NCBI GenBank assembly: GCA_009838735.1
Contig: VXQZ01000052.1
Coordinates: forward strand, 11,332-75,331
Source: Chloroflexota bacterium
GTDB taxonomy: Bacteria; Chloroflexota; Dehalococcoidia; Bin125
Length of the DNA stretch: 64,000 bases
Reading direction: 5' to 3'
Shown: positions 3,899-32,589 of the stretch, piece after piece
How positions within the stretch are numbered: the first letter of the stretch is position 1
How the letters are laid out: each line of letters opens with the position of its first letter
Notes under the pieces: model-generated
The model's input: only the letters and a program-made list of their open reading frames with translations
Databases searched by the model: none
What the model was told of the DNA's origin: nothing
Translations under genes and position numbers: made by a program

Positions 3899-4414
3899 AT
3901 GGCCAGTTACAGCAGTCGACCGGCAATGGCGCTCAAGGAAGGCGTTTCTTACGGGGCCACGATCGAGATGGAAGACGGCGGCACGATCGAGCTGGAGCTC
4001 TGGCCCGACAAGGCGCCTGAGCACGTCAACTCGTTTGTGTTCCTCGCCAACGACGGCTTCTACGACGGCGTGACCTTTCACCGGATCATCAGCGGATTCA
4101 TGGCCCAGGGCGGCGATCCGACCGGCACCGGCACGGGAGGCCCCGGATACAACGTGCCGGCCGAGTTCAACGACACCGCGCACGTCGAGGGTGTGCTGTC
4201 GATGGCCCGGGCGCAGGATCCGAATTCAGCAGGCAGCCAGTTCTTCATCTGCAACGCCGACGCGACGTTCCTCGACCGTCAGTACACGGCGTTCGGCAAG
4301 GTGACGTCGGGGATGGAAGTCGTACTCGCCTTCCCCGACCGCGACCCGCAGGACCCGCGACAATCGCGCCAGCCGGGACCGAAGATGAAGTCGGTGACGA
4401 TCACCGAGTCATAG
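3899..4414 (+). CDS. cyclophilin-type peptidyl-prolyl cis-trans isomerase (soluble paralogue)
   Basis: I use the internal ATG at 3899 ('MASYSS...') of ORF 3761..4414, because the upstream part overlaps the preceding gene. Core motif 'FHRIISGFMAQGGDPTGTGTGGPGYNVPAEF...SMARAQDPNSAGSQFFI'. Confidence 0.85.
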   Translation: MASYSSRPAMALKEGVSYGATIEMEDGGTIELELWPDKAPEHVNSFVFLANDGFYDGVTFHRIISGFMAQGGDPTGTGTGGPGYNVPAEFNDTAHVEGVLSMARAQDPNSAGSQFFICNADATFLDRQYTAFGKVTSGMEVVLAFPDRDPQDPRQSRQPGPKMKSVTITES

Positions 4415-4433
4415 TCAGCGAAGAGCAGAGTTC

Positions 4434-4685
4434 ATGTCGTCGCAGCCGCCTCAGATTCCCCCGATTCCACCCCTCGCGGTGGTGCTTCGGGTGATATCGA
4501 TCCTGGGGATGGGCCTGACCTTTTCCGGCTGTGTGCTGGCGCTGGTCGCGGCCGAATGGTGGTGGGCGATCGGTACCGGCGTGGCCTTCGTGCCATTCAT
4601 GCTGATCATGGGCATTGTTGACCGGCTGATTCCCGACATTTCCGAGTGGACCGCCGAACAGGCCCCGCCCAACGAGCAAGATTAA
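4434..4685 (+). CDS. small hypothetical membrane protein (two predicted TM helices)
   Basis: 83-aa ORF with hydrophobic segments 'LAVVLRVISILGMGLTFSGCVLALVAA' and 'AIGTGVAFVPFMLIMGIV'. A perfect hairpin follows it directly. No recognisable family. Confidence 0.45.
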   Translation: MSSQPPQIPPIPPLAVVLRVISILGMGLTFSGCVLALVAAEWWWAIGTGVAFVPFMLIMGIVDRLIPDISEWTAEQAPPNEQD

Positions 4686-4686
4686 C

Positions 4687-4726
4687 CAGGACGCTCTGCC
4701 GCAACGCGTTGCGGCAGAGCGTCCTG
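4687..4726. terminator. perfect 40-nt palindrome (20-bp arms) between convergent genes; likely bidirectional terminator
   Basis: CAGGACGCTCTGCCGCAACG|CGTTGCGGCAGAGCGTCCTG equals its own reverse complement. It lies between the stop at 4685 (+) and the stop at 4747 (-). There is no clear U-tract. Confidence 0.6.
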
Positions 4727-4746
4727 TGCGTTCCCTCGTCCAGGAG

Positions 4747-5169
4747 CTAGTCGTCGATTCGGGCGGTTGCCGTGCCTTTGACGACCTCGGCGCCATCCTG
4801 GTTGATCGTCGAGACCGAGAGATCGACGAGGCTCACGCCGTCTTCCTCGCGGATGTCTTCAACGGTGGCGGTCGCGGTCAGGCTGTCGCCCGGCCAGACC
4901 TGGCTGACGAAGCGGACCCCGTAGTTGGTCAGGCGGCCGTCGCCGACGTAGTTGGTCAGCATCTTGCCGGTCAGGCCCATGCTGAGCATGCCGTGGGCGA
5001 AGACGGTGGGGTAGCCCGCGACCTTCGTGGTGAAGATCTCGTCGGTGTGCAGCGGGTTGTAGTCGCCGGAGGCGCCGGCGTACTGGATGATCTGGGTGCG
5101 GGTGAGGTTGTCCACGACCTGTTCGCTGTGCTGGTCGCCGACGCTGAGGTTTGCCTTGCTGAGCGGCAT
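4747..5169 (-). CDS. MaoC-like (R)-specific enoyl-CoA hydratase/dehydratase, hot-dog fold
   Basis: I use the internal ATG at 5169 ('MPLSKANLSVGD...'). Motif 'QIIQYAGASGDYNPLHTDE'. The longer ORF to 5340 would overlap the upstream gene. Confidence 0.8.
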   Translation of the reverse strand: MPLSKANLSVGDQHSEQVVDNLTRTQIIQYAGASGDYNPLHTDEIFTTKVAGYPTVFAHGMLSMGLTGKMLTNYVGDGRLTNYGVRFVSQVWPGDSLTATATVEDIREEDGVSLVDLSVSTINQDGAEVVKGTATARIDD

Positions 5170-5207
5170 GGTTTGCTCTCTTCTGCTTTCTCTTCGAATC
5201 CCGGACG

Positions 5208-5693
5208 CTACTCGACCACTCGTGAGGTCTGCACGCCCACCGAACGGGCCGTGACAACCAGCACGCCGTCCTGGTTGTAGTACTCGGTGATCGACTCGTT
5301 GAACTTCAACGTGCCTCCGCGGCGGCCCTCGCGACTCCATGAGTTGCCGGGCTTGTCGACGGCCTTCAACACGTCGCCAGGCTGGATCGGCGCGTGGTAC
5401 TCGTAATGCTGCTCGGCGTGGAAGCCGGTGCCACCACCGCCGCCCGAGGATTCGCGCTTCACACCGGTTGGCTCTTTGCCCGAGCCGAACCAGGGCTCGC
5501 CGACCACTGGTCGGAGGACGTAGCCGTCCGTGAACTGAGCCGAGGCCTGAACGAACGTGGGCGGAGGAATGACGTGGCCCGGCTCCGTGCCGGTTGCCGC
5601 GTTGGCGTCGTGATAGATCGGGTTGTCGTCGCCGATCGAGCGAGCGAAGAGCATGATGTGCCCGGCTTCAATCGGAAAGTGGTCGGTTGCCAC
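5208..5693 (-). CDS. MaoC-N / FAS1-type dehydratase hot-dog subunit, partner of 4747..5169
   Basis: The GTG at 5693 is preceded by GAAAGGA about 7 nt upstream. Protein begins 'VATDHFPIEAGHIMLFARSIGDDNPIYHD'. It sits 38 nt upstream of the second hot-dog gene. Confidence 0.7.
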   Translation of the reverse strand: MATDHFPIEAGHIMLFARSIGDDNPIYHDANAATGTEPGHVIPPPTFVQASAQFTDGYVLRPVVGEPWFGSGKEPTGVKRESSGGGGGTGFHAEQHYEYHAPIQPGDVLKAVDKPGNSWSREGRRGGTLKFNESITEYYNQDGVLVVTARSVGVQTSRVVE

Positions 5694-5779
5694 TGGCGGG
5701 TCCTTTCGTGTTCGTTTGACGCGTACGGGCGATAGCTTAACGGACACTGTCCCGAGCATCGATTGGAGCGCGGTCGACG

Positions 5780-8215
5780 ATGACGAAGCCGTTCAGTGAG
5801 CTGCGCGTGGTCGAGTTGGCGGGTTCGCACGGGGGCGCCTTTGCCGCCAAGATGTTTGCTGACTATGGCGCCCAGGTCGTCAAGGTCGTTCCGCCGGATG
5901 GAGATCCGCTGATCCATCACGGAGAGTTGCTCAACGCTCACAGCCTTGGAGACTCGGACGTGGGCTCGATCTGGGCCTTCTGCAATACGTCCAAGTTCGT
6001 TCTCGAAGCGGATGCCGGTTCTGCCGACATCCAGCGATTGATTTCGCTATCAGACGTAGTGATAGAGAGCTCCGCACCTGATCCTCTAACGCCAGTGACG
6101 GAGGAACTGGAAGCGTTGAGGTTGGTCAGGGTCTACATCTCGCCGTTTGGGTTGTCAGGAGCCTGGTCGCGTCGCAGATCGAACGTTTTCACCGACGACG
6201 CGGCCAGCGGTCACATGTACCTCAACGGCGAAGCGAACCGGCATCCGTTTCGCCGGCATGGTCGACACACCGAATACGCGGCCGGCATGTATGGCTTCAT
6301 TGGCGCACTCGCGGCGTTGATTGCGCGCGAGTCGACGGGAGAGGGCCAGACGGTCGAGGTGTCGCACCTCGAGGCGATGGTGGCGATGCATCAGCACACG
6401 ACGACGATGTGGACGCACGCCGGTCACATTCTCAGGCGAGACGGCAATGCTCAGCCGGGGATGTGGCATCCGGCGGGCGTGTACGAGTGCGCCGATGGAT
6501 TCATCTTCCTCGGTCACGCGACCGGGACGAAGCTAGAACCGTTCCTACAGGCTGGCGGGATGGGGCACCTGTTTGACGATCCTCGCTTCGCTACCAACGA
6601 ATCGCGAGGCAGGAACAAGAAGGCGTTCGACGCGGCGTTGCGTCCCTGGCTCATGGCGCAGACCTCGGAAGAACTCTGTGAGCTCGGTGAAGCCACGTTT
6701 TCGCCGATGGGACCCGTCTGGAGCACTCACGAGTTCCTGGCCGACCCGCACATGGCCGCTCGCGAGTATTTCGTCCCGCTTGACGACGAGCGCGGCACCG
6801 AGGTGATTCCACGAGGGCCGTTCCGGTTGGGTTCGGACCTGCTCGGAGGTTCACCTCGACCGCCGACAAGGATCACCGTTGACGATCTCTCCGTTCAGGG
6901 AGATCCAGAACCAGCGCCGGCAACCGGTGAAACTCTGGAACAGGGTCCGCTGTCAGGGTTGCGAATCCTCGACCTGACTCGGGTCTGGGCCGGACCGATT
7001 GCCGGTCGACTACTGGGGGATCTCGGAGCTGAGGTCATCCACATTGAGTCGCCATGGAATCGCGGGCCTCTGGAAGTCGCGGACGACCTTGCCGACCTGA
7101 CTCATCTGTATCCGGATAACGAGCTGGGCGAGCGCCACTGGAATCGCAACGGCGGATTCAACAAGTTGGCCCGAAACAAACAGGGGCTCTCGATCGACCT
7201 GTCGACCAGTCGAGGCCAGCAACTGTTTCGCGATCTGATCGGGGAGTCGGACGTCATCCTGGAGAATTTCTCTCCGCGAGTATTTCCGCAGTGGGGGCTG
7301 GACTGGGATTCGCTGCAAGGGATCAACCGGTCGATCATCCACACTTCGATGCCCGGTTACGGCGCCAGCGGTCCTGGTGCCAATCGCGTGGCCCTGGGCC
7401 CGGTGATTGAGGCCGCGACGGGAATGACGATGATGGCGGGATACGCGGACGGCATTCCGTTCCGGTCCGGCGTCGCCTGGCCCGATCCGGTTTCGGGCAT
7501 GAGTGCCGTAGCGGGCACGCTGGTCGGGCTCTGGCAGCGGATGGCTTCAGGCGGCGAAGGCCAGCGGGTCGAGACGGCAATGATCGAGTCCATGGGCACG
7601 TTTGCCGGCGATGAGTTGCTCTCGGCGCAGGTCGTCGGACAGTCTCCGCCGCGTCGTGGGAATCGCGAACAGGGCGTGGCGCCACAGGGCGTGTACCGGT
7701 GTTTCGGCGACGACCGCTGGCTGGCGATTTCAGTGACATCAGATGAGGAATGGCGGTCGCTCTGCCGGGTCGCCGAGTTGCCGGACGCATGGCATGGTTA
7801 TGAGTTGTGGGAGCGTGAGATACGGCACGACGAGATCGATGCCGGATTGAATATCTGGACGCGTTCGATCTCGCCAGCCGAGGCCGCGATGCGGCTGCAG
7901 TCGGCGGGCGTGATTGCCGCCGGCCTGGCGGATGCACGCGATCTGTTGGAGTCGACACACCTGGCCGAGCGGCAGTTCTGGGCCGAAGTCGGCGGAATCG
8001 ACATGGGGGTGCTGAGGTATCCGGGCTGCCCGATTCGGTTGAGCCGGACCCCGCCGACATACCGCCGTGGAGCGCCCGGCCTGGGTGAGCACAATGCCGC
8101 AGTGCTGACGCAAGTGCTGGGCATGAGTGAGGCGGAGGTCGGAGAGTTGCTGGCCGACGGCGTGCTCGCGGAACGCCCGCCGAGCATCGAGGAAATGTTG
8201 AAGCCTCGACTCTGA
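5780..8215 (+). CDS. tandem-fused class III CoA-transferase (two CaiB/BaiF/Frc-type domains in one chain)
   Basis: 811-aa ORF in which the N-terminal CoA-transferase signature occurs twice: 'LRVVELAGSHGGAFAAKMFADYGAQVVKV' and 'LRILDLTRVWAGPIAGRLLGDLGAEVIHIESP'. A Pro-rich linker separates the two halves. Confidence 0.85.
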   Translation: MTKPFSELRVVELAGSHGGAFAAKMFADYGAQVVKVVPPDGDPLIHHGELLNAHSLGDSDVGSIWAFCNTSKFVLEADAGSADIQRLISLSDVVIESSAPDPLTPVTEELEALRLVRVYISPFGLSGAWSRRRSNVFTDDAASGHMYLNGEANRHPFRRHGRHTEYAAGMYGFIGALAALIARESTGEGQTVEVSHLEAMVAMHQHTTTMWTHAGHILRRDGNAQPGMWHPAGVYECADGFIFLGHATGTKLEPFLQAGGMGHLFDDPRFATNESRGRNKKAFDAALRPWLMAQTSEELCELGEATFSPMGPVWSTHEFLADPHMAAREYFVPLDDERGTEVIPRGPFRLGSDLLGGSPRPPTRITVDDLSVQGDPEPAPATGETLEQGPLSGLRILDLTRVWAGPIAGRLLGDLGAEVIHIESPWNRGPLEVADDLADLTHLYPDNELGERHWNRNGGFNKLARNKQGLSIDLSTSRGQQLFRDLIGESDVILENFSPRVFPQWGLDWDSLQGINRSIIHTSMPGYGASGPGANRVALGPVIEAATGMTMMAGYADGIPFRSGVAWPDPVSGMSAVAGTLVGLWQRMASGGEGQRVETAMIESMGTFAGDELLSAQVVGQSPPRRGNREQGVAPQGVYRCFGDDRWLAISVTSDEEWRSLCRVAELPDAWHGYELWEREIRHDEIDAGLNIWTRSISPAEAAMRLQSAGVIAAGLADARDLLESTHLAERQFWAEVGGIDMGVLRYPGCPIRLSRTPPTYRRGAPGLGEHNAAVLTQVLGMSEAEVGELLADGVLAERPPSIEEMLKPRL

Positions 8216-13138: not shown

Positions 13139-14497
13139 TTAGCCGTTGCCGGCCGCGTCCCCGAGTCGGTAGGACTCGTCCAGCAGTTCGATCGCGTGAG
13201 TGGATCGAGGCATCATCTGGGAGTCGTCGTCAAAACGCGAAATGCCGGCGTCGAGCTGCAACATGCATCCCGGGTTGGCCGTGCAAACCTGCTCGGCGCC
13301 GGTTGAGAGCACGTCTTCCATCTTCTCGGCCAGCACCCGTTTCGAGATATCGCTCTGTACCACCGAGTAGATCCCGGCGGAGCCGCAACACTTGTCGGGC
13401 TTGCGCATCTCGCTCAGGGTTAGCCCCGGAATGCTGCGCAGGACGTCCCGTGGGGCGCTACGAACATTCTGGGCATGCGAGAGGTGACAGGAATCCTGGT
13501 AGGTGACGGTTCGTTCGACTCGACCTTCTGGGGCGGCAAAGCCGATTTGCACGAGATACTCGTGCACATCACGAACGCGCGCCGCAAACGCCTTCGCTCG
13601 TTCCGAGTATGCGGTGTCGTTGCGGAGCAGATGACCGTACTCCTTGAGGTGCGACCCGCAGCCCGCCGCATTGATCAGAATTGCGTCGGGCAGATCCGCC
13701 GACTCGGGCGTGATGGCGTCGATGTTTCGTCGGGCCAGGTCGCGCGCTGCTTCCACGTCGCCACCGTGAGCGTGCAGGGCGCCGCAGCAGACCTGCGCGT
13801 TCGGAGCGTTGACGGCGACGCCGTTTCGCGTGAACACGCGGACGGTGGCGCGGTGGGTCTCCGGGTAGGCCAGCGGCATCATGCAGCCGGTAATCAATGC
13901 GGCTCGCGCGCGAACGGGCGCCGTCGGCTTGACTTGAGAGGCCTCGTTGTTTGTGTAGAAGGGTCTGTCGGCGACCGGCGATAGCGAGTCGATGTCCGCA
14001 AGCCGTGGCGAGAGCCTTGCCAACAAGCCAGTCTTCCTCACCAGCGCCTGGAGTCCTGTCCGCTGGTAGAGCTTCAATCCGTACCCGGCCAGTCGCATGC
14101 GCCCGGGATACGGGAAGAGTCCATGCATGATCAGCCGCCAGAAGACGCGCTGTCGGCGGGGCCACCTGTTCTGCGCAAAGGCCTCGGCGCGAGTCGCTTC
14201 CATCAGGCGTCCGTACGGCACCTTCGATGGACAGGCGGTCTCGCAGGCGCGGCACTGCAGGCATTGATCGAAGTGCTGCTGGACTCGCGGCGACCACTCG
14301 ATCCGTCCGTCGTCGAGTCCTCGCATCAGCGCGATGCGGCCACGCGGAGAGTCAGTCTCGACGCCCAGATCGTGATACGTCGGGCAGGCATTGAGACAGA
14401 ATCCACAGTGGACGCACAGGCCCAGTTCACCTGCGTCGGGCCGATCCTCGGTCATCCAGATCGATTCACTGTCCAACGGCGACGGAGCGATGGTCAT
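13139..14497 (-). CDS. glcF: glycolate oxidase iron-sulfur subunit
   Basis: Two ferredoxin-type motifs ('CVHCGFCLNACP', 'CLQCRACETACP') and C-terminal CCG-type Cys motifs ('VCCGALHAH', 'KCCGSAG'). It is the last gene of a glcD-glcE-glcF order. Confidence 0.85.
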   Translation of the reverse strand: MTIAPSPLDSESIWMTEDRPDAGELGLCVHCGFCLNACPTYHDLGVETDSPRGRIALMRGLDDGRIEWSPRVQQHFDQCLQCRACETACPSKVPYGRLMEATRAEAFAQNRWPRRQRVFWRLIMHGLFPYPGRMRLAGYGLKLYQRTGLQALVRKTGLLARLSPRLADIDSLSPVADRPFYTNNEASQVKPTAPVRARAALITGCMMPLAYPETHRATVRVFTRNGVAVNAPNAQVCCGALHAHGGDVEAARDLARRNIDAITPESADLPDAILINAAGCGSHLKEYGHLLRNDTAYSERAKAFAARVRDVHEYLVQIGFAAPEGRVERTVTYQDSCHLSHAQNVRSAPRDVLRSIPGLTLSEMRKPDKCCGSAGIYSVVQSDISKRVLAEKMEDVLSTGAEQVCTANPGCMLQLDAGISRFDDDSQMMPRSTHAIELLDESYRLGDAAGNG

Positions 14498-14506
14498 GGA
14501 AGCAGC

Positions 14507-15829
14507 TTAGATTCCATCTACGAAACGACCAGGACTGAGGATTCCCGAGGGGTCGAACTGCGCCTTGACGTTGTGCATCAGTCGGGCACCGGGACCGGCG
14601 GGCCCCCAGACATCGACTGCGCGCTTCAGCTCGAGCGGGCCTGACTCGATGGTCAGTCTTCCCTGGAGAGGGCCGAGAAGAGTTCGCAAGGTCTTCACCG
14701 TGTCGGCGTCGACGGTTGGTACATCGACCAACATCAATCCCGAATCGGCAGCGGCAACCCAGGACGTCACTTCCGGCAGATTGTCGGCGAGGATCCGTTG
14801 CCCCCGCGGCAGATTGGCCGGAGGGAGGCCCAATCGCAGCCTGACACAAGCTTCAGTGTTCTGGAGCTCCAGATCTGCAACTGCTTGCCAGGTCTCAACG
14901 ATCGCGGTCGTGGTCCGTTCCGGATTGTCGATTCCGGCATCGCGAACGGCACGCAGCGCCTGAGCCAGCACTTCGGACGCGGCGGTTTCCAGTCCGTTTG
15001 CTCGGAGCAGGATCGCCGGCTGGTCGTGGAGCACCTTGGCGCCAAGGTCGTGTGCATTAGCCGAGGCTCCGGCCGAGAGCGCTACGCATCCATTGAGAAA
15101 CGGCGCTGCATTCGCCGCCGCCCGAGAAGCAGCCAGCGCCGACTCAAAGGTCGGGGCGTTGAGCGCCACGATCTGGTCGCTGGCCGGCTGCGGCCGGAGC
15201 TTGAGCGTTACTTCGACGATGACGCCAAGGGTGCCAAGGGAGCCGGCAAACAGCTTGGGCAGGTCGTACCCGCTGACATTCTTGACCACCTTGCCGCCGC
15301 CCTTGATCGCCGTCCCGTCGGCCTTGACCATGCGCATCCCAATCAGCCAGTCGCGCGGTCCGCCGAACGAACCGCGCCGCAGTCCCCCGCGTCCGACGGC
15401 GCAGATGCCGCCGAGAGTGGCCCGCTCAAAATGGGGGTGATCGAGCGGCAAGAACTGTCCGTTGGTGGCCAAATGGCGTTGCAGTTCCGCCAGGGTCATC
15501 CCGGCCTGCACGGTGATCGTGAAGTCATTGGGTTCGTAGTCGACGACCTGGTCCAGCGCTGAGAGATCAAGTGCCACGTCGTACTTGCGAGGTGGCATTC
15601 CGAGGTCGCGCATGGTTCGACCGCCGTGCGCAATAACTGACAGATCTCGTTCAGTCGCGAACGACTGCAAGCGCTCAACGTCTTCGATCTCAGTCGCCCT
15701 GACCGCTCCGTCGGGGACGAGATCGTCAACGGCGTAGCGCCTCAGGCGTTCGCTATCCGAGTCGACGTTGTCGAACAGTGAACTGAGAGAATCGAGCCGG
15801 GCAGTGTCGCCAGTCTCAGCGCCCGCCAT
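14507..15829 (-). CDS. glcE: glycolate oxidase FAD-binding subunit
   Basis: 440-aa FAD-binding PCMH-type ORF positioned between glcD and glcF. Confidence 0.8.
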   Translation of the reverse strand: MAGAETGDTARLDSLSSLFDNVDSDSERLRRYAVDDLVPDGAVRATEIEDVERLQSFATERDLSVIAHGGRTMRDLGMPPRKYDVALDLSALDQVVDYEPNDFTITVQAGMTLAELQRHLATNGQFLPLDHPHFERATLGGICAVGRGGLRRGSFGGPRDWLIGMRMVKADGTAIKGGGKVVKNVSGYDLPKLFAGSLGTLGVIVEVTLKLRPQPASDQIVALNAPTFESALAASRAAANAAPFLNGCVALSAGASANAHDLGAKVLHDQPAILLRANGLETAASEVLAQALRAVRDAGIDNPERTTTAIVETWQAVADLELQNTEACVRLRLGLPPANLPRGQRILADNLPEVTSWVAAADSGLMLVDVPTVDADTVKTLRTLLGPLQGRLTIESGPLELKRAVDVWGPAGPGARLMHNVKAQFDPSGILSPGRFVDGI

Positions 15830-15856
15830 GTTGCAGTCCGGGGTACGCCAGCCGAT

Positions 15857-17311
15857 TCATACAAACGCTTTGGGGCCGAACTTGGCGATCTGATGTTGGG
15901 CGTGCTGGTGACCAGCTTCTCCGCACCCGTGGCCCTTGGGGAAGATCTTGCAGGGGTTGAAGTTCTCGGTCGGCCCGAACGCGGCCCGCAGCGATTTCAT
16001 CGTGTCCATGTCGGCCTCGGTGAAGATCCAGGGCAGGTAATCTCGCTTTTCCAGACCGACGCCGTGTTCTCCGGTGATCGCGCCGCCAGCATCGACACAC
16101 AGGCGCATAATCTCGCCGCCGGCATCGAGTACTCGCTCGGTTGCGCCGGGTTCTCGTTCGTCGAACAGCAGACAGGGATGCAGGTTGCCGTCGCCAGCGT
16201 GGAACATGTTGGCTACGGGCAATCGATATCGCTCGGCGATCTCGTAGACGCCGTCCAGGACGTCGGGCAATTGGGTTCTCGGGACCACGCCGTCCAACAG
16301 GTAGTAGTTGGGCATAATCTGGCCCAGCGCGCCAATGGCGCCCTTGCGGCCGGCCCAGAGATGCTCACGCTCCTCCGGATCGGTGGCCGACCGGAGTTCA
16401 CGGGGTTCAAATCGATTGAGAATGCCCTCGACCCGCGCCCCCTCTGCCTCAACCTGAGATTCCGGTCCGTCGACCTCGACCAACAGGACGGCTTCAGCGT
16501 CGAGGGGGAATCCGGTGTTGAGCACCGGCTCGACGGCGGCGATCGTCATCTTGTCGATCATCTCCAACGCCGCTGGGACGATTCCCGAAGCGACGACAGC
16601 CGACACTGCGTTTGACGCCTGTCTGACGCTGTCGTAGATGGCAAGCATCGTTCGCACGGCGGTCGGCCTGGGCACCAGACGGACGAGCGCCTGAGTGACG
16701 ATTCCGACCGTGCCTTCCGAGCCGACCACGCAACCAACCAGGTCGTATCCTGGTTCGTCGCGGGTGTCGTGCCCGATCCACTGGACCTCTCCGTCGGCGG
16801 TGACCAGTTCCAGCGCGAGCACGTGATTCGTGGTCGTGCCCCAGGCGAGCGTATGCGGCCCGCCGGCATTCTCGGCGATGTTGCCGCCGATGGTGCAGGC
16901 CCGCTGTGAACTCGGGTCTGGCGCGTAGGCGAGGCCATAGCGCTCGGCCTCGGATCCGAGGTCGAGGTTGACCACGCCGGGCTGAACCAGCGCCGTTTTG
17001 TTCTCCGGATCGACGTCGAGTATGCGTCGCATCCGGTTCATGCCAATAATCACGCCGCCCTTGGCCGCAAGCGCTCCGCCGCTGAGACCGGTGCCCGCTC
17101 CGCGGGGAGTCACCGGCGCCTCGTACTTGTTGGCGATCTTGATGAGGCTGACCACATCGACGGTGTTGGCCGGCAAGGCGATCACGTCCGGATTGCCACG
17201 GTCGATCGTGCCGTCGTACTCGTAGACGAGCAGATCTTCGTCGTGCCAGACCACGGCTTCCTCGCCAATGGCGTCAATCAGGTCCAGGACGAGCGGCGTA
17301 GGTGTCTTCAT
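15857..17311 (-). CDS. glcD: glycolate oxidase subunit GlcD (FAD-linked oxidase)
   Basis: 484 aa with 'VTPRGAGTGLSGGA' and a C-terminal FAD-oxidase domain 'ITGEHGVGLEKRDYL'. Confidence 0.9.
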   Translation of the reverse strand: MKTPTPLVLDLIDAIGEEAVVWHDEDLLVYEYDGTIDRGNPDVIALPANTVDVVSLIKIANKYEAPVTPRGAGTGLSGGALAAKGGVIIGMNRMRRILDVDPENKTALVQPGVVNLDLGSEAERYGLAYAPDPSSQRACTIGGNIAENAGGPHTLAWGTTTNHVLALELVTADGEVQWIGHDTRDEPGYDLVGCVVGSEGTVGIVTQALVRLVPRPTAVRTMLAIYDSVRQASNAVSAVVASGIVPAALEMIDKMTIAAVEPVLNTGFPLDAEAVLLVEVDGPESQVEAEGARVEGILNRFEPRELRSATDPEEREHLWAGRKGAIGALGQIMPNYYLLDGVVPRTQLPDVLDGVYEIAERYRLPVANMFHAGDGNLHPCLLFDEREPGATERVLDAGGEIMRLCVDAGGAITGEHGVGLEKRDYLPWIFTEADMDTMKSLRAAFGPTENFNPCKIFPKGHGCGEAGHQHAQHQIAKFGPKAFV

Positions 17312-17332
17312 GGTTCAATCATAGAGGGGCAC

Positions 17333-18190
17333 TCAGCGCTGCCAGCGACGGTCGAGGAAGTCGATGACTGCCTGATTGAATCTGTCCGGCTGCTCGAGGT
17401 ATACAGAGTGACCGGCATCGGGAACGACCACGAACTCCGAGCCGTCCATGGCGCGGTGCGATGCTTCCATCGCCTGCCAGGGAACAATCCGATCGTGTTC
17501 GCCGACGATGTAGAGCATCGGCATGCCGAATTGTCTCAGCAGCGGCATGGATGATCCGCGCCAGGTGGCGAGTCCTGGTGTCGGCGCCAGGAATGTCGAA
17601 GGCCGTTTGGGGTTCCAGCCGTTCATCCGTCGATACAGCCAGGTGAGCTGCGGATCGTTCTGCTCGGTCGTCGGAGCCAGCGCGCGCTGTCTGAGCGTGA
17701 GGCCCTCCACGGTCCGGTAGTGGGCGGCCTGGATGTCGCGAACCTCGTCATTGACCGCGCCTGCCAGGGTGCCCGAGAGAATCAACGCCTCGATTCTGCC
17801 CGGAAAGATCAACGCGAACGGCGTCGCGGTTCTGCCGCCCATGGAATGGGCGACCATGGCGAACTGGTCGATGTCCAGGTGTTCCAGCAGCGCGTGCAGG
17901 TCGTGTGGGAACGCGCGCCTGCCCGGCCCGCCAGGAACGTCCCTGCTCAGACCGAAGGCTCGGTGATCGAATGTGATCGTGTAGTAGCGCTCGCGGAACT
18001 CGGGAACGTTGCGCCACCAGACGAGATGATTGCCTCCGGCGCCATGCGCAAGGATCAGCGGCGGCGCAGAGGGATCGCCATGCGCCTCGTAATAGAGGTC
18101 AATCTCGTTGCAGTGGAGATAGGGCACAATCAGAACTGGGAGATCAGGTGTTCGCCGATGACGCTGCCGCCTCGAGCACCAACTCGACAC
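17333..18190 (-). CDS. alpha/beta-fold hydrolase
   Basis: Nucleophile elbow 'VAHSMGG' and oxyanion-hole region 'LILAHGAGGN'. Starting at 18190 would overlap pncC by 47 nt. An alternative GTG at 18127 has no obvious SD, so the start is uncertain. Confidence 0.75.
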   Translation of the reverse strand: MSSWCSRRQRHRRTPDLPVLIVPYLHCNEIDLYYEAHGDPSAPPLILAHGAGGNHLVWWRNVPEFRERYYTITFDHRAFGLSRDVPGGPGRRAFPHDLHALLEHLDIDQFAMVAHSMGGRTATPFALIFPGRIEALILSGTLAGAVNDEVRDIQAAHYRTVEGLTLRQRALAPTTEQNDPQLTWLYRRMNGWNPKRPSTFLAPTPGLATWRGSSMPLLRQFGMPMLYIVGEHDRIVPWQAMEASHRAMDGSEFVVVPDAGHSVYLEQPDRFNQAVIDFLDRRWQR

Positions 18191-18635
18191 AGCGGACGGC
18201 AGTCAGACGCTTGTTCCCCTCACGGTCGGAGTTCCACACCTGTCGTTCCGCGTAGACTCGGTCGCCAGGCCCGACGCAGGCCATCCAGACGGTGCCGACT
18301 GGACGAGACTCAGAACCCCCGGTCGGGCCGGTGATGCCCGTCTCGGCAACACCGATATCGGCATTGAGCGTGTCGCGCACGCCTCGCGCCATCGCCACGG
18401 CCGCCTCCTCCGACACGGAGCCATGCTCGCGCAGCAGATCGCGCGATACGCCGATCAGGTCGATCTTCGGGTAGTTGTGATACGGCGACGCCCCGCCGAT
18501 CCAGACCCTGGAGCAGCCGGCGATGTCAGTGATCCAGTGACCAATCAGACCGCCCGTGTCGGTCTCAGCCGTCGCCAGGGTGAGGCTGCGTTCGGCCAAG
18601 GTGTCAATCAGTTGCTGGGCGATGGCCTCGGCCAT
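18144..18635 (-). CDS. pncC: CinA-family nicotinamide-nucleotide amidohydrolase
   Basis: 163 aa, 'LTLATAETDTGGLIGHWITDIAGCS', typical of the CinA C-terminal domain. Confidence 0.8.
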   Translation of the reverse strand: MAEAIAQQLIDTLAERSLTLATAETDTGGLIGHWITDIAGCSRVWIGGASPYHNYPKIDLIGVSRDLLREHGSVSEEAAVAMARGVRDTLNADIGVAETGITGPTGGSESRPVGTVWMACVGPGDRVYAERQVWNSDREGNKRLTAVRCVELVLEAAASSANT

Positions 18636-18650
18636 GGATGAGGCTCTTGC

Positions 18651-18971
18651 CTAGTCCTCGTTGCCCGTGGATCGGTCCCAGGCAAACATCAGAATCAGGA
18701 TGAACGTCACCAGCACGATGAACGGCGCCAGAAGAATGGAGAACTCGTACCACTCCTCGCGGTCGAAGTTGTTGACGCCGGTGCCGCCTTCGTCCGGCGC
18801 GGCCTGTTGCGGCATGGAGAGTTCCGATTGTGTCTGCTCTGCATCAGCGGCGAGCAGGTCGCCGCTATCGTTGAACAGCGGCTGTATCGCAGAGATTGCG
18901 ACCAGGGCCAGCGCAGCGGCGAGTGAGAGACGCGCCATCGGCTTGATGATTGCTCTCAGAACCTCTCGCAT
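18651..18971 (-). CDS. hypothetical membrane protein
   Basis: N-terminal signal or TM segment 'LSLAAALALVAISAI' and C-terminal TM segment 'ILLAPFIVLVTFILILMFAW'. No family recognised. Confidence 0.45.
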   Translation of the reverse strand: MREVLRAIIKPMARLSLAAALALVAISAIQPLFNDSGDLLAADAEQTQSELSMPQQAAPDEGGTGVNNFDREEWYEFSILLAPFIVLVTFILILMFAWDRSTGNED

Positions 18972-19018: not shown

Positions 19019-20329
19019 TTATTCCAGCGCGCCCTCACGCGCGAGGGCGTCGATCCGATCCCGGTCGTAACCCAGCATCCGCCCGAGCACGTAGTCGGTG
19101 TCCTCGCCCAGGCGGGGCGCAGGCGACACGATCTCGGCGGGAGTTTCCGAGAGTTTCCAGGGCGGCGGCAACACCTGGCGCAAGCGCGTTTCCGGCGGTC
19201 TCACGCTGACTGCTCCGCCGCGCTGCCGGAAGTTCTCGGAGTGGTGGATGTCGCTGCCCCAGACCGATGCCGCGGCCGGCACTCCGGCGGCGCGAAGCGC
19301 CTCCGCGGTCTCGACCGCCGACTGTTCGGATGTCCACGCTTCAATCATGGGCTTTAGCTCGGCGCGGTGTTTCCAACGCTTGAGCCCGGTCTGAAAACGC
19401 GGGTCTTCACGGAGATGGTCGAGACCGCTGTGTTCGCAAAGAGAGTTCCAGTCTTCGTCCGAACGGCAGGCGATCGCGATCCAGCCGCTCCTCGCGCCCT
19501 TGTGGCCGTCGGTGTAGGCCTCCGGCGCGCGCATCGAGGCGCAGCGGAACACATCGTGCGGTGCATACGCCCGGTGACCATTGCCGATGCGGTCGCCATC
19601 GCGGCCAAGCAGGTCAACGTGCAGGAACTCTTCCGCGATGTGCATACCGATCGCCTCGGAGGACGACGCATCGATGAACTGTCCTCGCCCTGTCCTGGCG
19701 TGGTAGTGGAATCCGGCGAGCATCGCCATGGCGGCGGTAGTGCCGGCGCGCAGATCAATCGAGCCGCCCATCATCACGGGCGGCTCCTGTGGCTCGCCCG
19801 AGAGATAGGAGAGCCCGCTGAGCGCGGCAAAGGTGGGGGCATAGCCGGTGTAGTTGCGCTCCGGGCCGGTCGCGCCCAGAGCAGAAGCGGAGACCATCAC
19901 AATCTCCGGATTGACTTCGCGCAAATCGTCATAGCCGAGCCCGAGCTTCTCGAGAATGCCAGGCCTGAAGTTGTCGATCGCGCCGTCGGCGGTGCGGGCG
20001 AGATCGCGGATGACCTGCTTCGCGCCTTCCGTTTTCAGATTGAGTTGGATCGAGTACTTGTTGAGGTTGACCTCATTGAACATTGGCGCCTGGTTGACGC
20101 CGCCCGTGAACGAACCCATCGCCAGCGATCGCTGACGCGAGTGATCGATCCGGGTCGCCGACTCAATTTTGATTAGTTCCGCCCCGAGCAATGCCAACTG
20201 CATCGCCCCGTACGGTCCAGCCCAGGCCCAGGTGAAGTCGATGATCCGCTTGCCCGAAAGCGGCCCCGGTCGATTGGCCGCTTGCAGCAGTCCGTGGTGT
20301 CCGTTGCTGCCGTTCGTTGTGGTGGTCAT
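19019..20329 (-). CDS. class III CoA-transferase (CaiB/BaiF family)
   Basis: 'LSGKRIIDFTWAWAGPYGAMQLALLGAELIKIES'. Its ATG shares base 20329 with the upstream gene's TGA (TGATG). Confidence 0.85.
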   Translation of the reverse strand: MTTTTNGSNGHHGLLQAANRPGPLSGKRIIDFTWAWAGPYGAMQLALLGAELIKIESATRIDHSRQRSLAMGSFTGGVNQAPMFNEVNLNKYSIQLNLKTEGAKQVIRDLARTADGAIDNFRPGILEKLGLGYDDLREVNPEIVMVSASALGATGPERNYTGYAPTFAALSGLSYLSGEPQEPPVMMGGSIDLRAGTTAAMAMLAGFHYHARTGRGQFIDASSSEAIGMHIAEEFLHVDLLGRDGDRIGNGHRAYAPHDVFRCASMRAPEAYTDGHKGARSGWIAIACRSDEDWNSLCEHSGLDHLREDPRFQTGLKRWKHRAELKPMIEAWTSEQSAVETAEALRAAGVPAAASVWGSDIHHSENFRQRGGAVSVRPPETRLRQVLPPPWKLSETPAEIVSPAPRLGEDTDYVLGRMLGYDRDRIDALAREGALE

Positions 20330-21573
20330 CAGATGACTCCGGCTCGTCGGGCCTGGGCAGGGCTCCAGGGCGAGAGATACTGGGTGGTGACTTCAGCTGT
20401 CGAAGAGCCGAGCAGCGGCGCAGCAGTTCTCGCGGCGCGCTGCACGCCGTTCCAGCGTGCGGCAAACTGCGGATAGCGAGCGCTGTCGGCAACCGGATGT
20501 TCGAGGCGGTCAAAGAACTCGCGCACCTGCATCTGCTCCGAGTTCATCACTTCCGACGGTCGCAAGACGGGCCCCGCCGGCGCACTGTTTTCCTGCAGCG
20601 CGCGAAACACTTCATCGCGAGTGCGAGCGCCGGCCCACTGTTCAATCGCATCCCCCGCTTCCTCGCCCAGTTGGAGCCGATCAATCAGGCTGCCGTCCGC
20701 ATCGAATGCCCACTCCGGATCGCCCATCGACTTGATCAGCCCTGCCCATTGGTGGGATTGCGGTGTCACCGCGATCAGGTGGCCATCCGCGCACTCCAGC
20801 CGGCCGCCGAACGCGCTGCCGCCCTTGGTCGGCGGCCGCGCCGGAGGGCCTCCGTCGTTGTGTGCGATCGAGATGTCAACCCGGTCCATGTTCATCATTG
20901 CTTCGGTCGAAGCGACATCGACGATCTGGCCATGACCGAAACGCTCACGGGCGATCAGCGCCGACCACACGGCCAGCGCCAGTGCCATCCCGCCGTCCGC
21001 CTCGTGGACTTTGGCTCCGGCCATCAACGGAGCTCCTGTGTCGGCGCCCAGGTTGCGCCGGACCCCCGCCGCCGAGCCGGACGCGTGCGCCCGGGTCAGC
21101 GCCGTCGACGGCCACTCGGCCGCGCCGCCGACCAGGCCGAACGGCGTCACGGCTGCGATGATCAGTTGCGGATACCGGTCCCGCAATTCATCGGGGTTGA
21201 GATCGAGTTCGACCAAGTCAGCCGGCGTGCGATCGGTGACAAAGACATCAGCACTGCCAACCAGCTGCTGCAGCAACCGCCGTCCCGAGCCTGTGTCCAG
21301 GTCGAGGATCACGCTGCGCTTGGACGTGTTGTACGCCAACCACGAAGTGGACGTCTCCCGGTGTGGAGCAGGCTCGGCGAACGGAGCCATTCGTCGCGAG
21401 ACGTCCCCGTGAGGGGGCTCAATCTTGATCGTCTTCGCTCCCGCATCTGCGAGCAGCCTCGAGGCAAACGGACCGGCGATCTCTTCAGCCAACTCGACCA
21501 CGAGCAGGCCATCCAGCAGCGGCGGCCCGAGTTCTTCGTCGGCGTCGAGGGGTTCTGCAGAGCGCGTGGACAT
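20329..21573 (-). CDS. class III CoA-transferase (CaiB/BaiF family)
   Basis: 'LDGLLVVELAEEIAGPFASRLLADAGAKTIKIEPPHGD'. It is the first gene of a coupled pair. Confidence 0.85.
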   Translation of the reverse strand: MSTRSAEPLDADEELGPPLLDGLLVVELAEEIAGPFASRLLADAGAKTIKIEPPHGDVSRRMAPFAEPAPHRETSTSWLAYNTSKRSVILDLDTGSGRRLLQQLVGSADVFVTDRTPADLVELDLNPDELRDRYPQLIIAAVTPFGLVGGAAEWPSTALTRAHASGSAAGVRRNLGADTGAPLMAGAKVHEADGGMALALAVWSALIARERFGHGQIVDVASTEAMMNMDRVDISIAHNDGGPPARPPTKGGSAFGGRLECADGHLIAVTPQSHQWAGLIKSMGDPEWAFDADGSLIDRLQLGEEAGDAIEQWAGARTRDEVFRALQENSAPAGPVLRPSEVMNSEQMQVREFFDRLEHPVADSARYPQFAARWNGVQRAARTAAPLLGSSTAEVTTQYLSPWSPAQARRAGVI

Positions 21574-21580
21574 TCACCGA

Positions 21581-21615
21581 CAGTCTAGAACGCAGTGCGA
21601 CCTGCTCATAGACTG
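21581..21615. promoter_or_regulatory. inverted repeat CAGTCTA-N21-TAGACTG in the 48-bp divergent intergenic region
   Basis: Perfect 7-bp arms at 21581-21587 and 21609-21615, between the start codons at 21573 (-) and 21622 (+). Confidence 0.25.
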
Positions 21616-21621
21616 CCTGCG

Positions 21622-22836
21622 ATGAGCGAGCACGAACAGGACCCGCCGGACATCGCACTCCCGTACGAAGGCGTGCGGGTGCTGGAACTGGCCGAGGGGA
21701 TCTCCGGACCCTATGCCGGCCGCTGGCTGGCCGCCCTGGGCGCCGACGTGATCAAGATCGAACGAACCACGGGCGATCCTTCCAGAGCGTTCGGTCCCTG
21801 GCCCGACGATCTTCCGGACGACGAAACCAGCGGACTCTTTCTCTATCTCAACGGCGACAAGCGCTCCATCACCCTGAATCTGGAAACCTCCGACGGTCGC
21901 GAGATCCTGCGCGAGCTTGCCGCCTCGGCCGAGATCGTGATCGAATCGTTCGAACCGGGCTACCTGGCCGAGCGCGGGCTCGGCTACGACGAGCTGTCGA
22001 ACGACCACCCGGCGCTCGTGATGCTCTCGATCACTCCGTTCGGCCAGAGCGGCCCAAACGCGAACCTGCCGGCGACCGAACTGACGCTCTATGCCTCGTG
22101 CGGGCAAATGTGGATCACCGGACATCCCGACCGTTCGCCGCTCAAGAACGGTGGCTCTCAGCCGTCGTATCAAGCCGGGCTGAATGCGTTCTCGGCGCTC
22201 GCAGGTGCGTACTACGGGGCCGTCATGCACGATCAGGGCTCCTACATCGACCTGTCGGTGCAGGAAACCTACGCCGCCATGGCCGAGGCGTTCCACAACC
22301 GTGCAGCTCAGTTGGGCATCGAAACTCAACGGTCAGGCAACAATCTGAACGCGCTGTGGGGCGTCTACGAGTTGTCCGACGGCTACGGCGGGATCTGCGC
22401 GCTGCCGCGCAACTATCCGGCCTTCGCAAACGCAGTGGGGCTGCCGGAACTGCAGGAAGAGCGTTTCTCTGACCCCGGACAGCGTCTGATCAACAACGAT
22501 GAGCTGATGGCGCTCATGTTCGGCTGGTTCATCGGTCAGACACGACAAGGGCTGATGGAGCTGGGTATCGAACATCGCGTGCCGTTCGGATACGTGGCCA
22601 CCTTCGAGGATCTGGCCAACTCCGAGCACCTTCACAGTCGTGACTTCTTTGCCCAGCACGACGACGATCGCGCCGGCAGCCTGACATATCCGGGCCGGCT
22701 CTGGCTGAGCAGCGGGCACGACTGGAAGATGGGCCGCGCCCCGCTGTTGGGCGAGCACAACATGGAGATCATCCACGGCGAACTTGGCTACGAGCGCGAA
22801 GACCTGGTCCGGCTTCGGGAACTGGATGCAATCTGA
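21622..22836 (+). CDS. class III CoA-transferase (CaiB/BaiF family)
   Basis: ATG at 21622 ('MSEHEQD...'). Signature 'YEGVRVLELAEGISGPYAGRWLAALGADVIKIERTTGDP'. Confidence 0.85.
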   Translation: MSEHEQDPPDIALPYEGVRVLELAEGISGPYAGRWLAALGADVIKIERTTGDPSRAFGPWPDDLPDDETSGLFLYLNGDKRSITLNLETSDGREILRELAASAEIVIESFEPGYLAERGLGYDELSNDHPALVMLSITPFGQSGPNANLPATELTLYASCGQMWITGHPDRSPLKNGGSQPSYQAGLNAFSALAGAYYGAVMHDQGSYIDLSVQETYAAMAEAFHNRAAQLGIETQRSGNNLNALWGVYELSDGYGGICALPRNYPAFANAVGLPELQEERFSDPGQRLINNDELMALMFGWFIGQTRQGLMELGIEHRVPFGYVATFEDLANSEHLHSRDFFAQHDDDRAGSLTYPGRLWLSSGHDWKMGRAPLLGEHNMEIIHGELGYEREDLVRLRELDAI

Positions 22837-24122
22837 TGTTTGATCCCGGCCGTCCGCTGAGCGGCGTCCGCGTCGCCGACCTGACCATGATCTGGGCGGG
22901 CCCATACGCCGCGAAAATCCTGGCTGACCAGGGCGCCGAAGTAATCAAGATCGAGTCGCCACGCGCCTGGGACAACATCCGCACCCTCCTCCCTCCGCCA
23001 GTCGCGCCGGGCGAGCATTGGTGGAACACCAACTTCTACCTGCACGAGTACAGCCGCAACAAGAAGTCTCTGACGCTCGATCTGGCCTCTGATGAGGGCA
23101 AGACGGTCTTCGCCAGGTTGCTCGAACACTGCGACGTGGTCATCGAGAACTACCGCACCGACGTGATGGACAACCTGGGCTTGACCTACGAGTGGCTCAA
23201 GGAGCAGAAGGAAGACATCATCGTCGTCGGCATGGCTGGATTCGGCAAGACCGGTCCGGAGAAGGACGCCGTCGGCTACGGACCGATCATCGAGATGATG
23301 AGCGGAATGACGTCGACTTCGGGCTACGGCGACGACGGGGTGCCCTACAAGAGCGGCATCTCTTACGGCGACCCGATCGCCGGCATCTGCGCCTCGGCCG
23401 CCGTCGCGACGGCCTTGGTCCAGCGCAAGCGGACAGGCAAGGGACAGTACATCGACCTGGCTCAACGAGAGGTGATGTCGACGCTGCTCGGCGAGTTCTA
23501 CATGGACTGGTCGATGAACCAGCGTCTGCCCGAACACATGGGAACCGGACACGACTGGATGGCGCCACACAACGTCTATCCCTGCGCCGGCGACGATGAC
23601 TGGATTGCGATTTGCGTGCGGACCGACGCTGAGTGGGAAGGTCTGAAGCGCGCGATGGGATCGCCCGACTGGGCAGAGCGGACGGAGTTCTCCGACCAGA
23701 TTCTGCGCTGGGAACATCGCTCCCAGCTCGACGAACTGGTCGGCGGCTGGACCGCCGCAAGCTCGAAGATCGATCTCTTCGCCGCGCTCCACGTCGAGCA
23801 GATACCGTCGTCGCCGGTCTGGAAGATGCTCGAACTCCAGCGCGAACCACACCTCAAGGCGCGCGGCTTCTACGAGCCGCTGCGTCATCCCGAGGTGGGC
23901 ATCTGGTCGGTCCACGGCTGGCTCTGGCGAGCCGACGGCGCCGGTCCCTGCATTGTTGCCCCGGCGCCCGACTTCGGCCAGCACAACGCCGAGATTCTTG
24001 GCGGCCTGTTGGAGATGTCCGAAGACGACCAGTCGGCGCTGGAAGCGGCCGGCGTCACCGCGACGCGGCCCGAAGGCGTGCCGCTCGCCTCAGAGATGCC
24101 GCCTACGCCTTCGATGCTCTGA
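22836..24122 (+). CDS. class III CoA-transferase (CaiB/BaiF family)
   Basis: 'LSGVRVADLTMIWAGPYAAKILADQGAEVIKIESP'. Its ATG shares base 22836 with the upstream TGA (TGATG). Confidence 0.85.
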   Translation: MFDPGRPLSGVRVADLTMIWAGPYAAKILADQGAEVIKIESPRAWDNIRTLLPPPVAPGEHWWNTNFYLHEYSRNKKSLTLDLASDEGKTVFARLLEHCDVVIENYRTDVMDNLGLTYEWLKEQKEDIIVVGMAGFGKTGPEKDAVGYGPIIEMMSGMTSTSGYGDDGVPYKSGISYGDPIAGICASAAVATALVQRKRTGKGQYIDLAQREVMSTLLGEFYMDWSMNQRLPEHMGTGHDWMAPHNVYPCAGDDDWIAICVRTDAEWEGLKRAMGSPDWAERTEFSDQILRWEHRSQLDELVGGWTAASSKIDLFAALHVEQIPSSPVWKMLELQREPHLKARGFYEPLRHPEVGIWSVHGWLWRADGAGPCIVAPAPDFGQHNAEILGGLLEMSEDDQSALEAAGVTATRPEGVPLASEMPPTPSML

Positions 24123-31686: not shown

Positions 31687-32589
31687 ATGCCGAAGGCGTT
31701 CTCACTGAGCGTGCTCATGCCGCAGGGAGAGCCGCAAGGCTTGTGGGTGCTAACGAAAATCCATTGGAATGGCGTTGGTCTGTTCTTTCCTCGCGCCCGG
31801 CTAGAGAAGGCTCGAGAACGCTCCGAACTCAATCGGACCGGCGTGTATGTGCTGTGGAATGACGATGACCAGCTCCGACCAATCATCTATGTAGGTCAGT
31901 CAGAGGATGTGTCGAGACGCCTGAAGGAGCACTTTAGTGACGAAAAGATGGATTGGTGGACGAGGGCAGCGGCATTCACCACGAAAGACAACGCCTTCAA
32001 CCAAGCGCATGCCCGATTTCTTGAGTGGGCTCTGACTCAACGAGCACGAGAAGAAAATCGCTGCGAGCTACAGAACCGCATCACACCCTCCAAACCTTCG
32101 ATTTCCGAGGCAGACGAAGCGGATACGTCACGTTTCCTGGAAGACGTGCTTCAGTGCCTCCCGTTGGCTGGCCTGAGGGCGTTTGAAGCACTGGTTCCTG
32201 CGGGACATGATGGCGATTCAGAGAGAGGGAACCTGACGCTGTGCTTGGACCGACCGGTCATCGGCATCCAGGCTCGCGCCATTCCAGGCGTGGCAGACTT
32301 CACAGTGCTCAAGGGAGCCCAGGTCCGCCGTGATGAAGAACTCCCGAAAGGGTTCACAAATGAGCATCCCGGCTACAGAGCTCTACGGAGCAAACTGATC
32401 GAAGACGGAACCATCGCTGACCAAGGTGGAGAACACTACGTGCTGAAAGAGGACTGGACGTTCAGTTCGCCTAGCCAAGCGAACGTAGTCATCGCCGGCC
32501 ATCCGATGCATCCGTATCAAGTTTGGAAGGACTCCTCCGGTCGAACGTGGAACGCGATTCTCCGTGACGAGGATGAGGAAGATCAATGA
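31687..32589 (+). CDS. GIY-YIG nuclease-family protein with C-terminal DUF4357-like domain
   Basis: GGAGG lies 7 nt upstream of the ATG. GIY-YIG-like 'GVYVLWNDDDQLRPIIYVGQSEDVSRRLKEH' and C-terminal 'FSSPSQANVVIAGHPMHPYQVWKD'. The gene is more A/T-rich than its surroundings by eye. Confidence 0.75.
   Translation: MPKAFSLSVLMPQGEPQGLWVLTKIHWNGVGLFFPRARLEKARERSELNRTGVYVLWNDDDQLRPIIYVGQSEDVSRRLKEHFSDEKMDWWTRAAAFTTKDNAFNQAHARFLEWALTQRAREENRCELQNRITPSKPSISEADEADTSRFLEDVLQCLPLAGLRAFEALVPAGHDGDSERGNLTLCLDRPVIGIQARAIPGVADFTVLKGAQVRRDEELPKGFTNEHPGYRALRSKLIEDGTIADQGGEHYVLKEDWTFSSPSQANVVIAGHPMHPYQVWKDSSGRTWNAILRDEDEEDQ

Follow-up and report, generated by a model that had tools for sequence, protein, structure and literature searches.

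Why would a bacterium keep class III (CaiB/BaiF/Frc-type) coenzyme A (CoA)-transferase genes that lack the catalytic aspartate, each of them followed by an overlapping gene of the same family that has it? This question is raised by a stretch of 64,000 nt (hereafter called the window, at its full length) of a Chloroflexota bacterium (Dehalococcoidia; Bin125), corresponding to positions 11,332 to 75,331 of the forward strand of contig VXQZ01000052.1 (assembly GCA_009838735.1). The window contains two divergent pairs of such genes, named here P1/P2 and P3/P4, together with an open reading frame (ORF) in which two units of the family are fused (5780-8215) and a solitary paralogue (49573-50826). 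The answer that we favor, to which we give a probability of roughly 0.8, is that P1/P2 and P3/P4 would be independent two-gene operons for heteromeric CoA-transferases of the type of BbsEF, the two-subunit benzylsuccinate CoA-transferase (class III) of the toluene pathway, and that ORF 5780-8215 would encode the same unit as one polypeptide. The first unit of each pair is referred to below as the alpha-type (BbsEF chain-A-like) subunit and the second as the beta-type (chain-B-like), putatively catalytic subunit.

Gene layout and the catalytic column

The original prediction described four CaiB/BaiF/Frc-type genes arranged as two divergent pairs, and the coordinates of all four were confirmed, with full-length matches and PF02515 E values ranging from 1e-77 to 1e-100. 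On the minus strand, P1 (20329-21573; 414 amino acids [aa]; E = 2.7e-77) is followed by P2 (19019-20329; 436 aa; E = 1.2e-89), and on the plus strand, P3 (21622-22836; 404 aa; E = 1.1e-79) is followed by P4 (22836-24122; 428 aa; E = 1.2e-100). The fused ORF (plus strand, 811 aa) contains two PF02515 domains separated by a linker at about residues 371 to 390, and the solitary gene lies on the minus strand (E = 2.9e-131). All seven domains cover profile positions 1 to 366 of PF02515 (E values of 1e-77 to 1e-131), and no further PF02515 ORFs were found when the window ORFs of at least 250 aa were scanned. Reading of the sequence also verified the same one-base TGATG stop/start overlap at both intrapair junctions (20327-20331 on the minus strand for P1/P2 and 22834-22838 on the plus strand for P3/P4); both read ATC TGA TG, and the A of the stop codon doubles as the A of the next ATG. 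The peptide strings quoted in the prediction were all present in the translations. The longest ORF of P3 begins at GTG 21595; its start was placed at ATG 21622 because about 70 orthologues measure 403 to 411 aa. The divergent spacer (21574-21621) leaves 48 nt between the start codons of P1 and P3, scant space for two promoters.

The column of the catalytic Asp169 of Frc was read by pairwise HMMER alignment against solved structures, by MAFFT alignment of the seven domains and by a profile alignment, and all of these agreed. Frc numbering was anchored by an Frc sequence 100% identical to 1p5h_A; the segment around Asp169 on which the earlier alignment by eye relied was thus correct. As had been proposed from that alignment, Asp was found in every second unit and in no first unit. 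Thus, P1 has Glu191 (codon 21001-21003) at this column, P3 has Ser182 (codon 22165-22167) and the N-terminal half of the fused ORF has Glu165, whereas Asp192 (codon 19754-19756) occupies it in P2, Asp179 (codon 23370-23372) in P4 and Asp569 in the C-terminal half of the fused ORF, which therefore repeats the order of the pairs. The solitary paralogue is canonical, with Asp174. In the pairwise HMMER alignments, Glu191 of P1 was matched to the Asp of 4ed9 and to that of Rv3272. For its part, the Asn96 of Frc is replaced by Asp114 in P1, and Ser109 and Ser97 are found in P3 and in the fused N-terminal half, respectively; its equivalents are Asn120 in P2, Asn105 in P4 and Asn496 in the fused C-terminal half. 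Because column 169 has no Asp in P1, P3 or the fused N-terminal half, the alpha units appear to be class III members by fold and not by catalytic residue. A Glu at this position of Frc is represented among solved structures by the D169E mutant (1vgr).

Orthologue neighborhoods were taken from a search for contigs encoding close orthologues. In one of them (L081), an S-then-D pair at 56% and 59% identity is present with an ATGA overlap, adjoining genes for an enoyl-CoA hydratase, a nucleoside diphosphate-forming acyl-CoA-synthetase-like protein, a thiolase and a second hydratase. In another (L084), both pairs are kept at 66 to 81% identity: the P1 orthologue (66%) retains the Glu and the P2 orthologue (74%) the Asp, the P1/P2 overlap is again ATGA, and the P3/P4 junction is a 16-nt gap. 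The P4 orthologues (59 to 81% identity) also keep the Asp. Since pairs and residues recur in orthologues at 56 to 81% identity in other genomes, the arrangement is not due to chance. At the place of the P1-P3 spacer, L084 carries an insertion (4147-6001) that comprises an ORF without annotation, a pair of PIN-domain genes and a gene for a putative antitoxin of the PhdYeFM type, the last with a weak Pfam hit. Because this insertion lies between them, P1/P2 and P3/P4 are separable, independent units.

Relation to BbsEF and pairing across genomes

Comparison with solved structures related each type of unit to a different subunit of BbsEF. The best PDB match of P3 was 9fn0_A (2e-46, against 1.4e-26 for chain B), whereas P2 and P4 were closest to 9fn0_B (5e-45 and 5e-57, against 3e-24 and 7.5e-28 for chain A, respectively). 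Similarly, the alpha units scored 105, 161 and 112 BLASTP bits against chain A and 95, 101 and 66 against chain B, and the beta units scored 169, 194 and 171 bits against chain B and 87, 107 and 99 against chain A. P1 was the weakest chain-A case (105 versus 95 bits), yet it was placed in the alpha clade of the tree described below. BbsEF itself has Tyr171 in chain A and Asp178 in chain B at column 169, the same column that holds E191 of P1, S182 of P3, D192 of P2 and D179 of P4. The likeness thus lies in two paralogous class III subunits, one without Asp at this column and one with it. The differences are that the Asp is replaced by Tyr in BbsEF and by Glu or Ser in the window pairs, that the window genome additionally has a fused version, and that BbsEF acts in the toluene pathway whereas the host of the window is an aerobic-type, sponge-associated member of the Chloroflexota. 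The genes bbsE and bbsF are adjacent and in that order.

A neighbor-joining tree of 117 class III domains divided the first and second units into two separate clades, as had been expected, with one BbsEF subunit in each. The alpha clade comprised 9fn0_A, P1, P3, the fused N-terminal half and all of the Asp-less units irrespective of gene order, and the beta clade comprised 9fn0_B, P2, P4, the fused C-terminal half and all of the Asp-bearing partners. A third clade was formed by solitary genes, including the window paralogue 49573-50826. The window pairs are thus well supported as putative new members of the BbsEF-type heteromeric class III enzymes, not as BbsEF orthologues, and they appear to share the testable defining features of that type except for substrate and operon context. 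Of the heteromeric family put forward in the original prediction, the asymmetry and the clades were upheld; the family is not new, as BbsEF, cited there as an analogue, itself belongs to it and shows the same asymmetry.

To cover a broader background, a genome collection was scanned, yielding class III loci of many phyla, at least 80 in all, with relatives at 40% identity or less. The ORFs of these loci were searched with a profile made from the window domains and the two BbsEF chains, and the catalytic column was then read. Among the loci listed there were 21 Asp-less units, with Q, E, G, W, L, S, Y, F, H, P or A at the column. For each of the 21, a unit with Asp was fused to it, lay directly beside it or was encoded on the same strand no more than 2 kb away. 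Six of these pairings were assigned by inspection (split domain hits in L038 and L054, a contig end in L008, and partners 0.6 to 1.9 kb off on the same strand in L012, L018 and L058). Solitary units accounted for 61 of the 87 Asp-bearing units and for none of the 21 Asp-less ones.

The order of the two units was a part of the original prediction that did not extend to the family. It holds in the window and its orthologues, and the Asp-less unit (x) also comes first in the gene pairs of L001, L003, L005, L006, L014, L015, L017, L054 and L071 and in the fusions of L020, L021, L038 and L076. However, the Asp-bearing unit (D) precedes it as a separate gene in L009, L013 and L069 and as the N-terminal half of a fusion in L007 and L011.

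An exhaustive search with P1 of representatives at the 50% identity level matched mostly fused proteins. The 123 fused representatives comprised 98 x-D, 23 D-D and 2 D-x proteins and not a single x-x protein, so that at least one nucleophile was retained in every fusion. For the fused ORF of the window, 120 homologue clusters were found at 48 to 95% identity, nearly all of about 800 aa, with five shorter partials. The C-terminal half had Asp in 118 of 118 cases, and the N-terminal half had E, H, A, L, Q, D, M or R. The AlphaFold2 model of the 811-aa fusion had a mean predicted local distance difference test score of 93.1 and a predicted template modeling (TM) score of 0.95, the linker being the one part of low confidence; given this TM score, the two halves would pack as one assembly. 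The best fold matches of the model were BbsEF chains D and B (target-normalized TM score of 0.92), within a range of 0.8 to 0.92 for class III chains.

These data bear on another explanation, namely that the first and second genes encode separate, cotranscribed homodimeric enzymes of one pathway and that the Asp-less one is independent of a nucleophile, as in an intramolecular transfer of CoA. Chemistry of this kind, free of a catalytic Asp or Glu, has indeed been proposed for the class III member ThnP (PMC11659651), and genes for paralogues that serve one pathway are commonly neighbors. However, enzymes working on their own would not account for the lack of solitary Asp-less units among the loci listed (0 of 21) or for their repeated fusion to Asp-bearing ones, never to each other, and the joint packing predicted for the fused halves also argues against them. 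In addition, the distance matrices of the alpha and beta units mirror each other (mirror-tree r = 0.62 for 19 unfused pairs; permutation mean, 0.00 ± 0.09; P ≤ 2e-4), and BbsEF, crystallized as chains A to D, is a two-subunit enzyme. We regard separate homodimers as highly improbable.

A function of the alpha units like that of alpha-methylacyl-CoA racemase was considered as well and rejected, given that alpha units were never alone among the loci listed. A second ground is that the racemase family uses the same Asp position.

Evolution of the alpha site and the proposed mechanism

The evolution of individual sites was counted on trees of the alpha-type and the beta-type halves (122 of each). 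In alpha, column 169 required a minimum of 63 changes, which brought in 13 different residues and included 18 or more switches between Asp and non-Asp; in beta it required none. Similarly, column 96 required 53 changes in alpha versus 9 in beta. Asp169 was present in 100% of the solitary and 100% of the beta units, whereas the plurality residue in alpha was Glu (30%), with Ser, Tyr, His, Gly, Ala, Leu, Trp, Gln, Arg and Cys also found in the alpha clade. Asn96 was kept in 96% of the solitary and 90% of the beta units, and the plurality residue in alpha was Asp (35%). The small-domain residues followed the same trend, with G255 in 98% of solitary, 94% of beta and 58% of alpha units, N256 in 62%, 91% and 19% (plurality Ser in alpha), and R313 in 98%, 99% and 71%, respectively. 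Beta therefore retains the canonical elements in both domains, and alpha has lost them in both while keeping the scaffold.

Beta units for their part lack the loop residues P39 and G42 and also G278, all of which are kept in alpha and in the solitary enzymes. They carry insertions at Frc positions 38 to 48 and 278 to 279 (about residues 41 to 64 of P4 and 424 to 455 of the fused ORF), with Trp at Frc position 279 in 93%. A "complementary degeneration" of beta was considered on account of these losses and set aside, beta-specific loop insertions being judged likelier.

The prevalence of Glu in alpha brings up the possibility that both pockets are catalytic, with alpha using another nucleophile (Glu191 or Asp193 in P1, Glu165 in the fused ORF) for two substrates or two half-reactions. 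In agreement with this, Glu is the commonest alpha residue at column 169 (30 of 122 halves, that is, 30 of the 99 without Asp) and occupies the N-terminal column in 67 of the 120 close homologues of the fused ORF. Furthermore, the P1 orthologues retain E-[AS]-D-x-G in the loop, the CoA-binding core is kept in alpha, and Asp is present in both halves of the 23 D-D fusions. However, most of the residues that have come to occupy the alpha column would be unable to form an anhydride, P3 has a Ser in a loop devoid of acidic residues, and Asn96 has been lost along with the Asp. The D169E variant of Frc is reportedly essentially inactive, which we counted against two catalytic pockets. Lastly, the only adduct named for BbsEF, the "D178-CoA adduct" to which the title of 9fol in the PDB refers, is that of chain B. 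On balance, a second catalytic pocket seems unlikely.

In the P1 subfamily (P1 residues 191 to 195; 20989-21003, minus strand), the acidic residue two positions past the column is kept whatever occupies the column itself, as seen in E-A-D-G-G and, elsewhere, in S-Y-D, A-Y-D and Q-Y-E (P0241, P0243, P0247 and P0248). This residue could be a displaced catalytic carboxylate or a substrate-binding one.

Asp-retaining alpha-type units were observed in L002, L010, L016, L035 and L050 and in the 23 D-D fusions, in 16 of which Asn96 had already been lost. The units with Asp and without Asn96 resemble a transitional stage between enzymes with two sites and those with one.

Loss of the canonical residues could also mean that alpha is in decay, its genes being duplicates that now encode pseudoenzymes without a role of their own and are due to be lost. 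Alpha does have less information per column on average (1.99 bits) than beta (2.15) or the solitary enzymes (2.41), and in every orthologue comparison it was less conserved than its beta partner. However, the alpha ORFs are intact and full-length from Chloroflexota to Lachnospiraceae, Mycobacterium and Paenibacillus, and their nucleotide-binding fold core (G30, A31, V33, K35, E37, R46, K67, G128, G131 and P132) is 87 to 100% conserved. The occurrence of stable fusions in many clusters and the invariance of the P3 loop (see below) are equally at odds with decay, an explanation that we find scarcely credible.

The mechanism that we propose for the heteromeric enzymes is modeled on solved class III enzymes. 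Interlocking of alpha and beta would give a two-pocket heterodimer, possibly an alpha2beta2 assembly, and the nucleophilic Asp and the Asn96 equivalent would be present only in the pocket on the large domain of beta. The acyl group of the donor CoA-thioester would be taken onto the beta Asp as a mixed anhydride and then passed with CoA to the acceptor acid. This pocket would be capped by the small domain of alpha, which evolves fast and would therefore be likely to determine acid specificity. In alpha, the large-domain pocket, with nucleophile and Asn96 lost and the nucleotide-binding core kept, would probably be non-catalytic, acting as a structural element or as a non-turnover CoA-binding site. 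Both the single active site and this role of the alpha small domain are what we infer.

An extended version of this proposal, which we put forward tentatively and consider rather doubtful, is that alpha is a specificity module rather than a dead partner. Its small domain would cap the catalytic pocket and its own pocket would bind CoA or acyl-CoA (in a holding, allosteric or half-of-sites role), diversification of alpha on a conserved beta would have expanded the family in sponge-associated and SAR202-type Chloroflexota to cope with a wide range of organic acids, and the Asp losses, with their 18 or more switches, would be adaptive to heteromerization rather than signs of decay.

Several points weigh against the heteromeric, one-site reading. 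Formation of the heteromer is deduced from gene order, fusions and homology. The tree of 117 domains was built without bootstrap support, and the 80-locus sample, chosen by similarity to P3, is enriched for alpha-like genes. About one-fifth of the alpha-type units elsewhere have Asp, and alpha is thus not inactive by definition. The P1 group keeps a Glu at the column and an Asp two residues on, and a displaced or alternative acidic nucleophile is possible there. As for P3, of its 70 orthologues with 54% identity or more, 66 carry the loop GGSQPSYQAGLN (GGSQPSYQAG(L/I)N); the four variants differ at flanking residues only, and the column holds Ser in 70 of 70. Since it is unchanged over a range of 54 to 98% identity, this loop is still constrained locally, and it has a function that the word "degenerate" misses. 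The original prediction of one degenerate active site was accordingly right for the nucleophile and too sweeping for the loop around it. Finally, because identity to BbsEF is 27 to 34% and no bss or bbs genes were found among the neighbors in the window, the substrate differs from that of BbsEF.

Gene neighborhood, related systems and significance

Downstream of P1-P2, on the same strand and with short gaps (13139-18971, minus), there are a 106-aa membrane ORF without a Pfam hit, genes for CinA and an alpha/beta hydrolase, and a set for a GlcD/GlcE/GlcF-like flavin adenine dinucleotide/iron-sulfur oxidase; P1-P2 and these genes may form one long operon. P3-P4 is convergent with an unknown ORF and an enoyl-CoA hydratase gene, and a Crp regulator is also among the neighbors of the pairs. 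Because enoyl-CoA hydratase, MaoC hydratase and thiolases are found as neighbors, the pairs would serve the activation of organic acids for a breakdown similar to beta-oxidation. No NCBIfam equivalog cutoff was reached by the window units, and for this reason no substrate was assigned. The solitary gene is flanked on both sides by genes for D-isomer-specific 2-hydroxyacid dehydrogenases (48114-52112, minus strand), followed by a major facilitator superfamily transporter gene (51742-53229), and the flanking dehydrogenases suggest that its substrate is a 2-hydroxy or 2-oxo acid.

Further along, an SCP2-type thiolase gene (Thiolase_C_1; 53300-54502, minus strand) comes right after that of a DUF35-type Zn-ribbon/OB-fold protein (zf-ChsH2 plus OB_ChsH2_C; 54601-55032). 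This two-protein layout (53300-55032), 30 kb from the BbsEF-like pairs, is like that of the BbsAB thiolase of the toluene pathway. Amid housekeeping genes, a protein that has a GIY-YIG nuclease domain and, at its C terminus, a DUF4357 is encoded at 31687-32589 (plus strand) and may be a mobile or defense-related element.

The window has a G+C content of 64%, and its nearest relatives are metagenome-assembled genomes of Chloroflexota at 98% and 89% identity. Its DNA is present in sponge metagenomes, as DNA contigs with a flat depth. Apparent joints and depth spikes in these metagenomes at 21726-21762 and about 22920-22960 were rejected as cross-matches of 37- to 40-nt motifs common to the paralogues. 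Many unrelated sponge contigs match both of these stretches, which points to many paralogues of the class III family in the sponge community.

Other class III systems resemble the window units to different degrees. Two-subunit enzymes of the class reportedly also include SmtAB, the succinyl-CoA:(S)-malate CoA-transferase of Chloroflexus, and succinyl-CoA:o-phthalate CoA-transferase. SmtAB, likened here by description only, stems from the Chloroflexota, as does the window. The homodimeric enzymes Frc, YfdW, YfdE, CaiB, SUGCT and Mct have the Pfam family and the fold in common with the window units; beta keeps their Asn96 and the small-domain residues G255, N256 and R313, and presumably also the Asp169 mixed-anhydride mechanism. 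They differ in that each is the product of one gene and has two identical active sites, and they belong to the separate clade that includes 49573-50826. DddD, a dimethylsulfoniopropionate CoA-transferase/lyase, is one polypeptide of about 820 aa with two class III domains in tandem (PMC7174347), and SAR202 CaiB paralogues have been reported with DddD as their best match (PMC5395668). Compared by architecture only, ORF 5780-8215 is similar to it in carrying two CaiB-type domains in one chain, and it differs in having no dimethylsulfoniopropionate catabolic genes around it, its divergently transcribed neighbor encoding a MaoC hydratase. DddD was not found among the names given for the homologues of the fused ORF. 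The essential Asp of DddD is said to lie in its C-terminal domain.

In SAR202-type marine Chloroflexota, the CaiB/BaiF CoA-transferases are the most prominent expanded paralogue family after the flavin monooxygenases, and they have been proposed as an ATP-free entry of recalcitrant organic acids into beta-oxidation (PMC5395668). Automatic annotation names each of these genes "CoA transferase" and counts each as one enzyme. The present survey indicates that a large share of them occur as alpha/beta pairs or as fusions that carry one nucleophile, which would halve the number of independent enzymes implied. The pairing would also tell which subunit to mutate or assay, and the proteins would need to be coexpressed for study. 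As an annotation rule, an Asp-less class III gene would predict an adjacent or fused Asp-bearing partner. The window pairs are placed in the same lineage as the solved BbsEF. What has been less widely appreciated is how large and phylogenetically coherent this alpha/beta lineage is, that Asp and Asn96 have been lost in alpha repeatedly and independently and that, among the loci listed, Asp-less units never stand alone.

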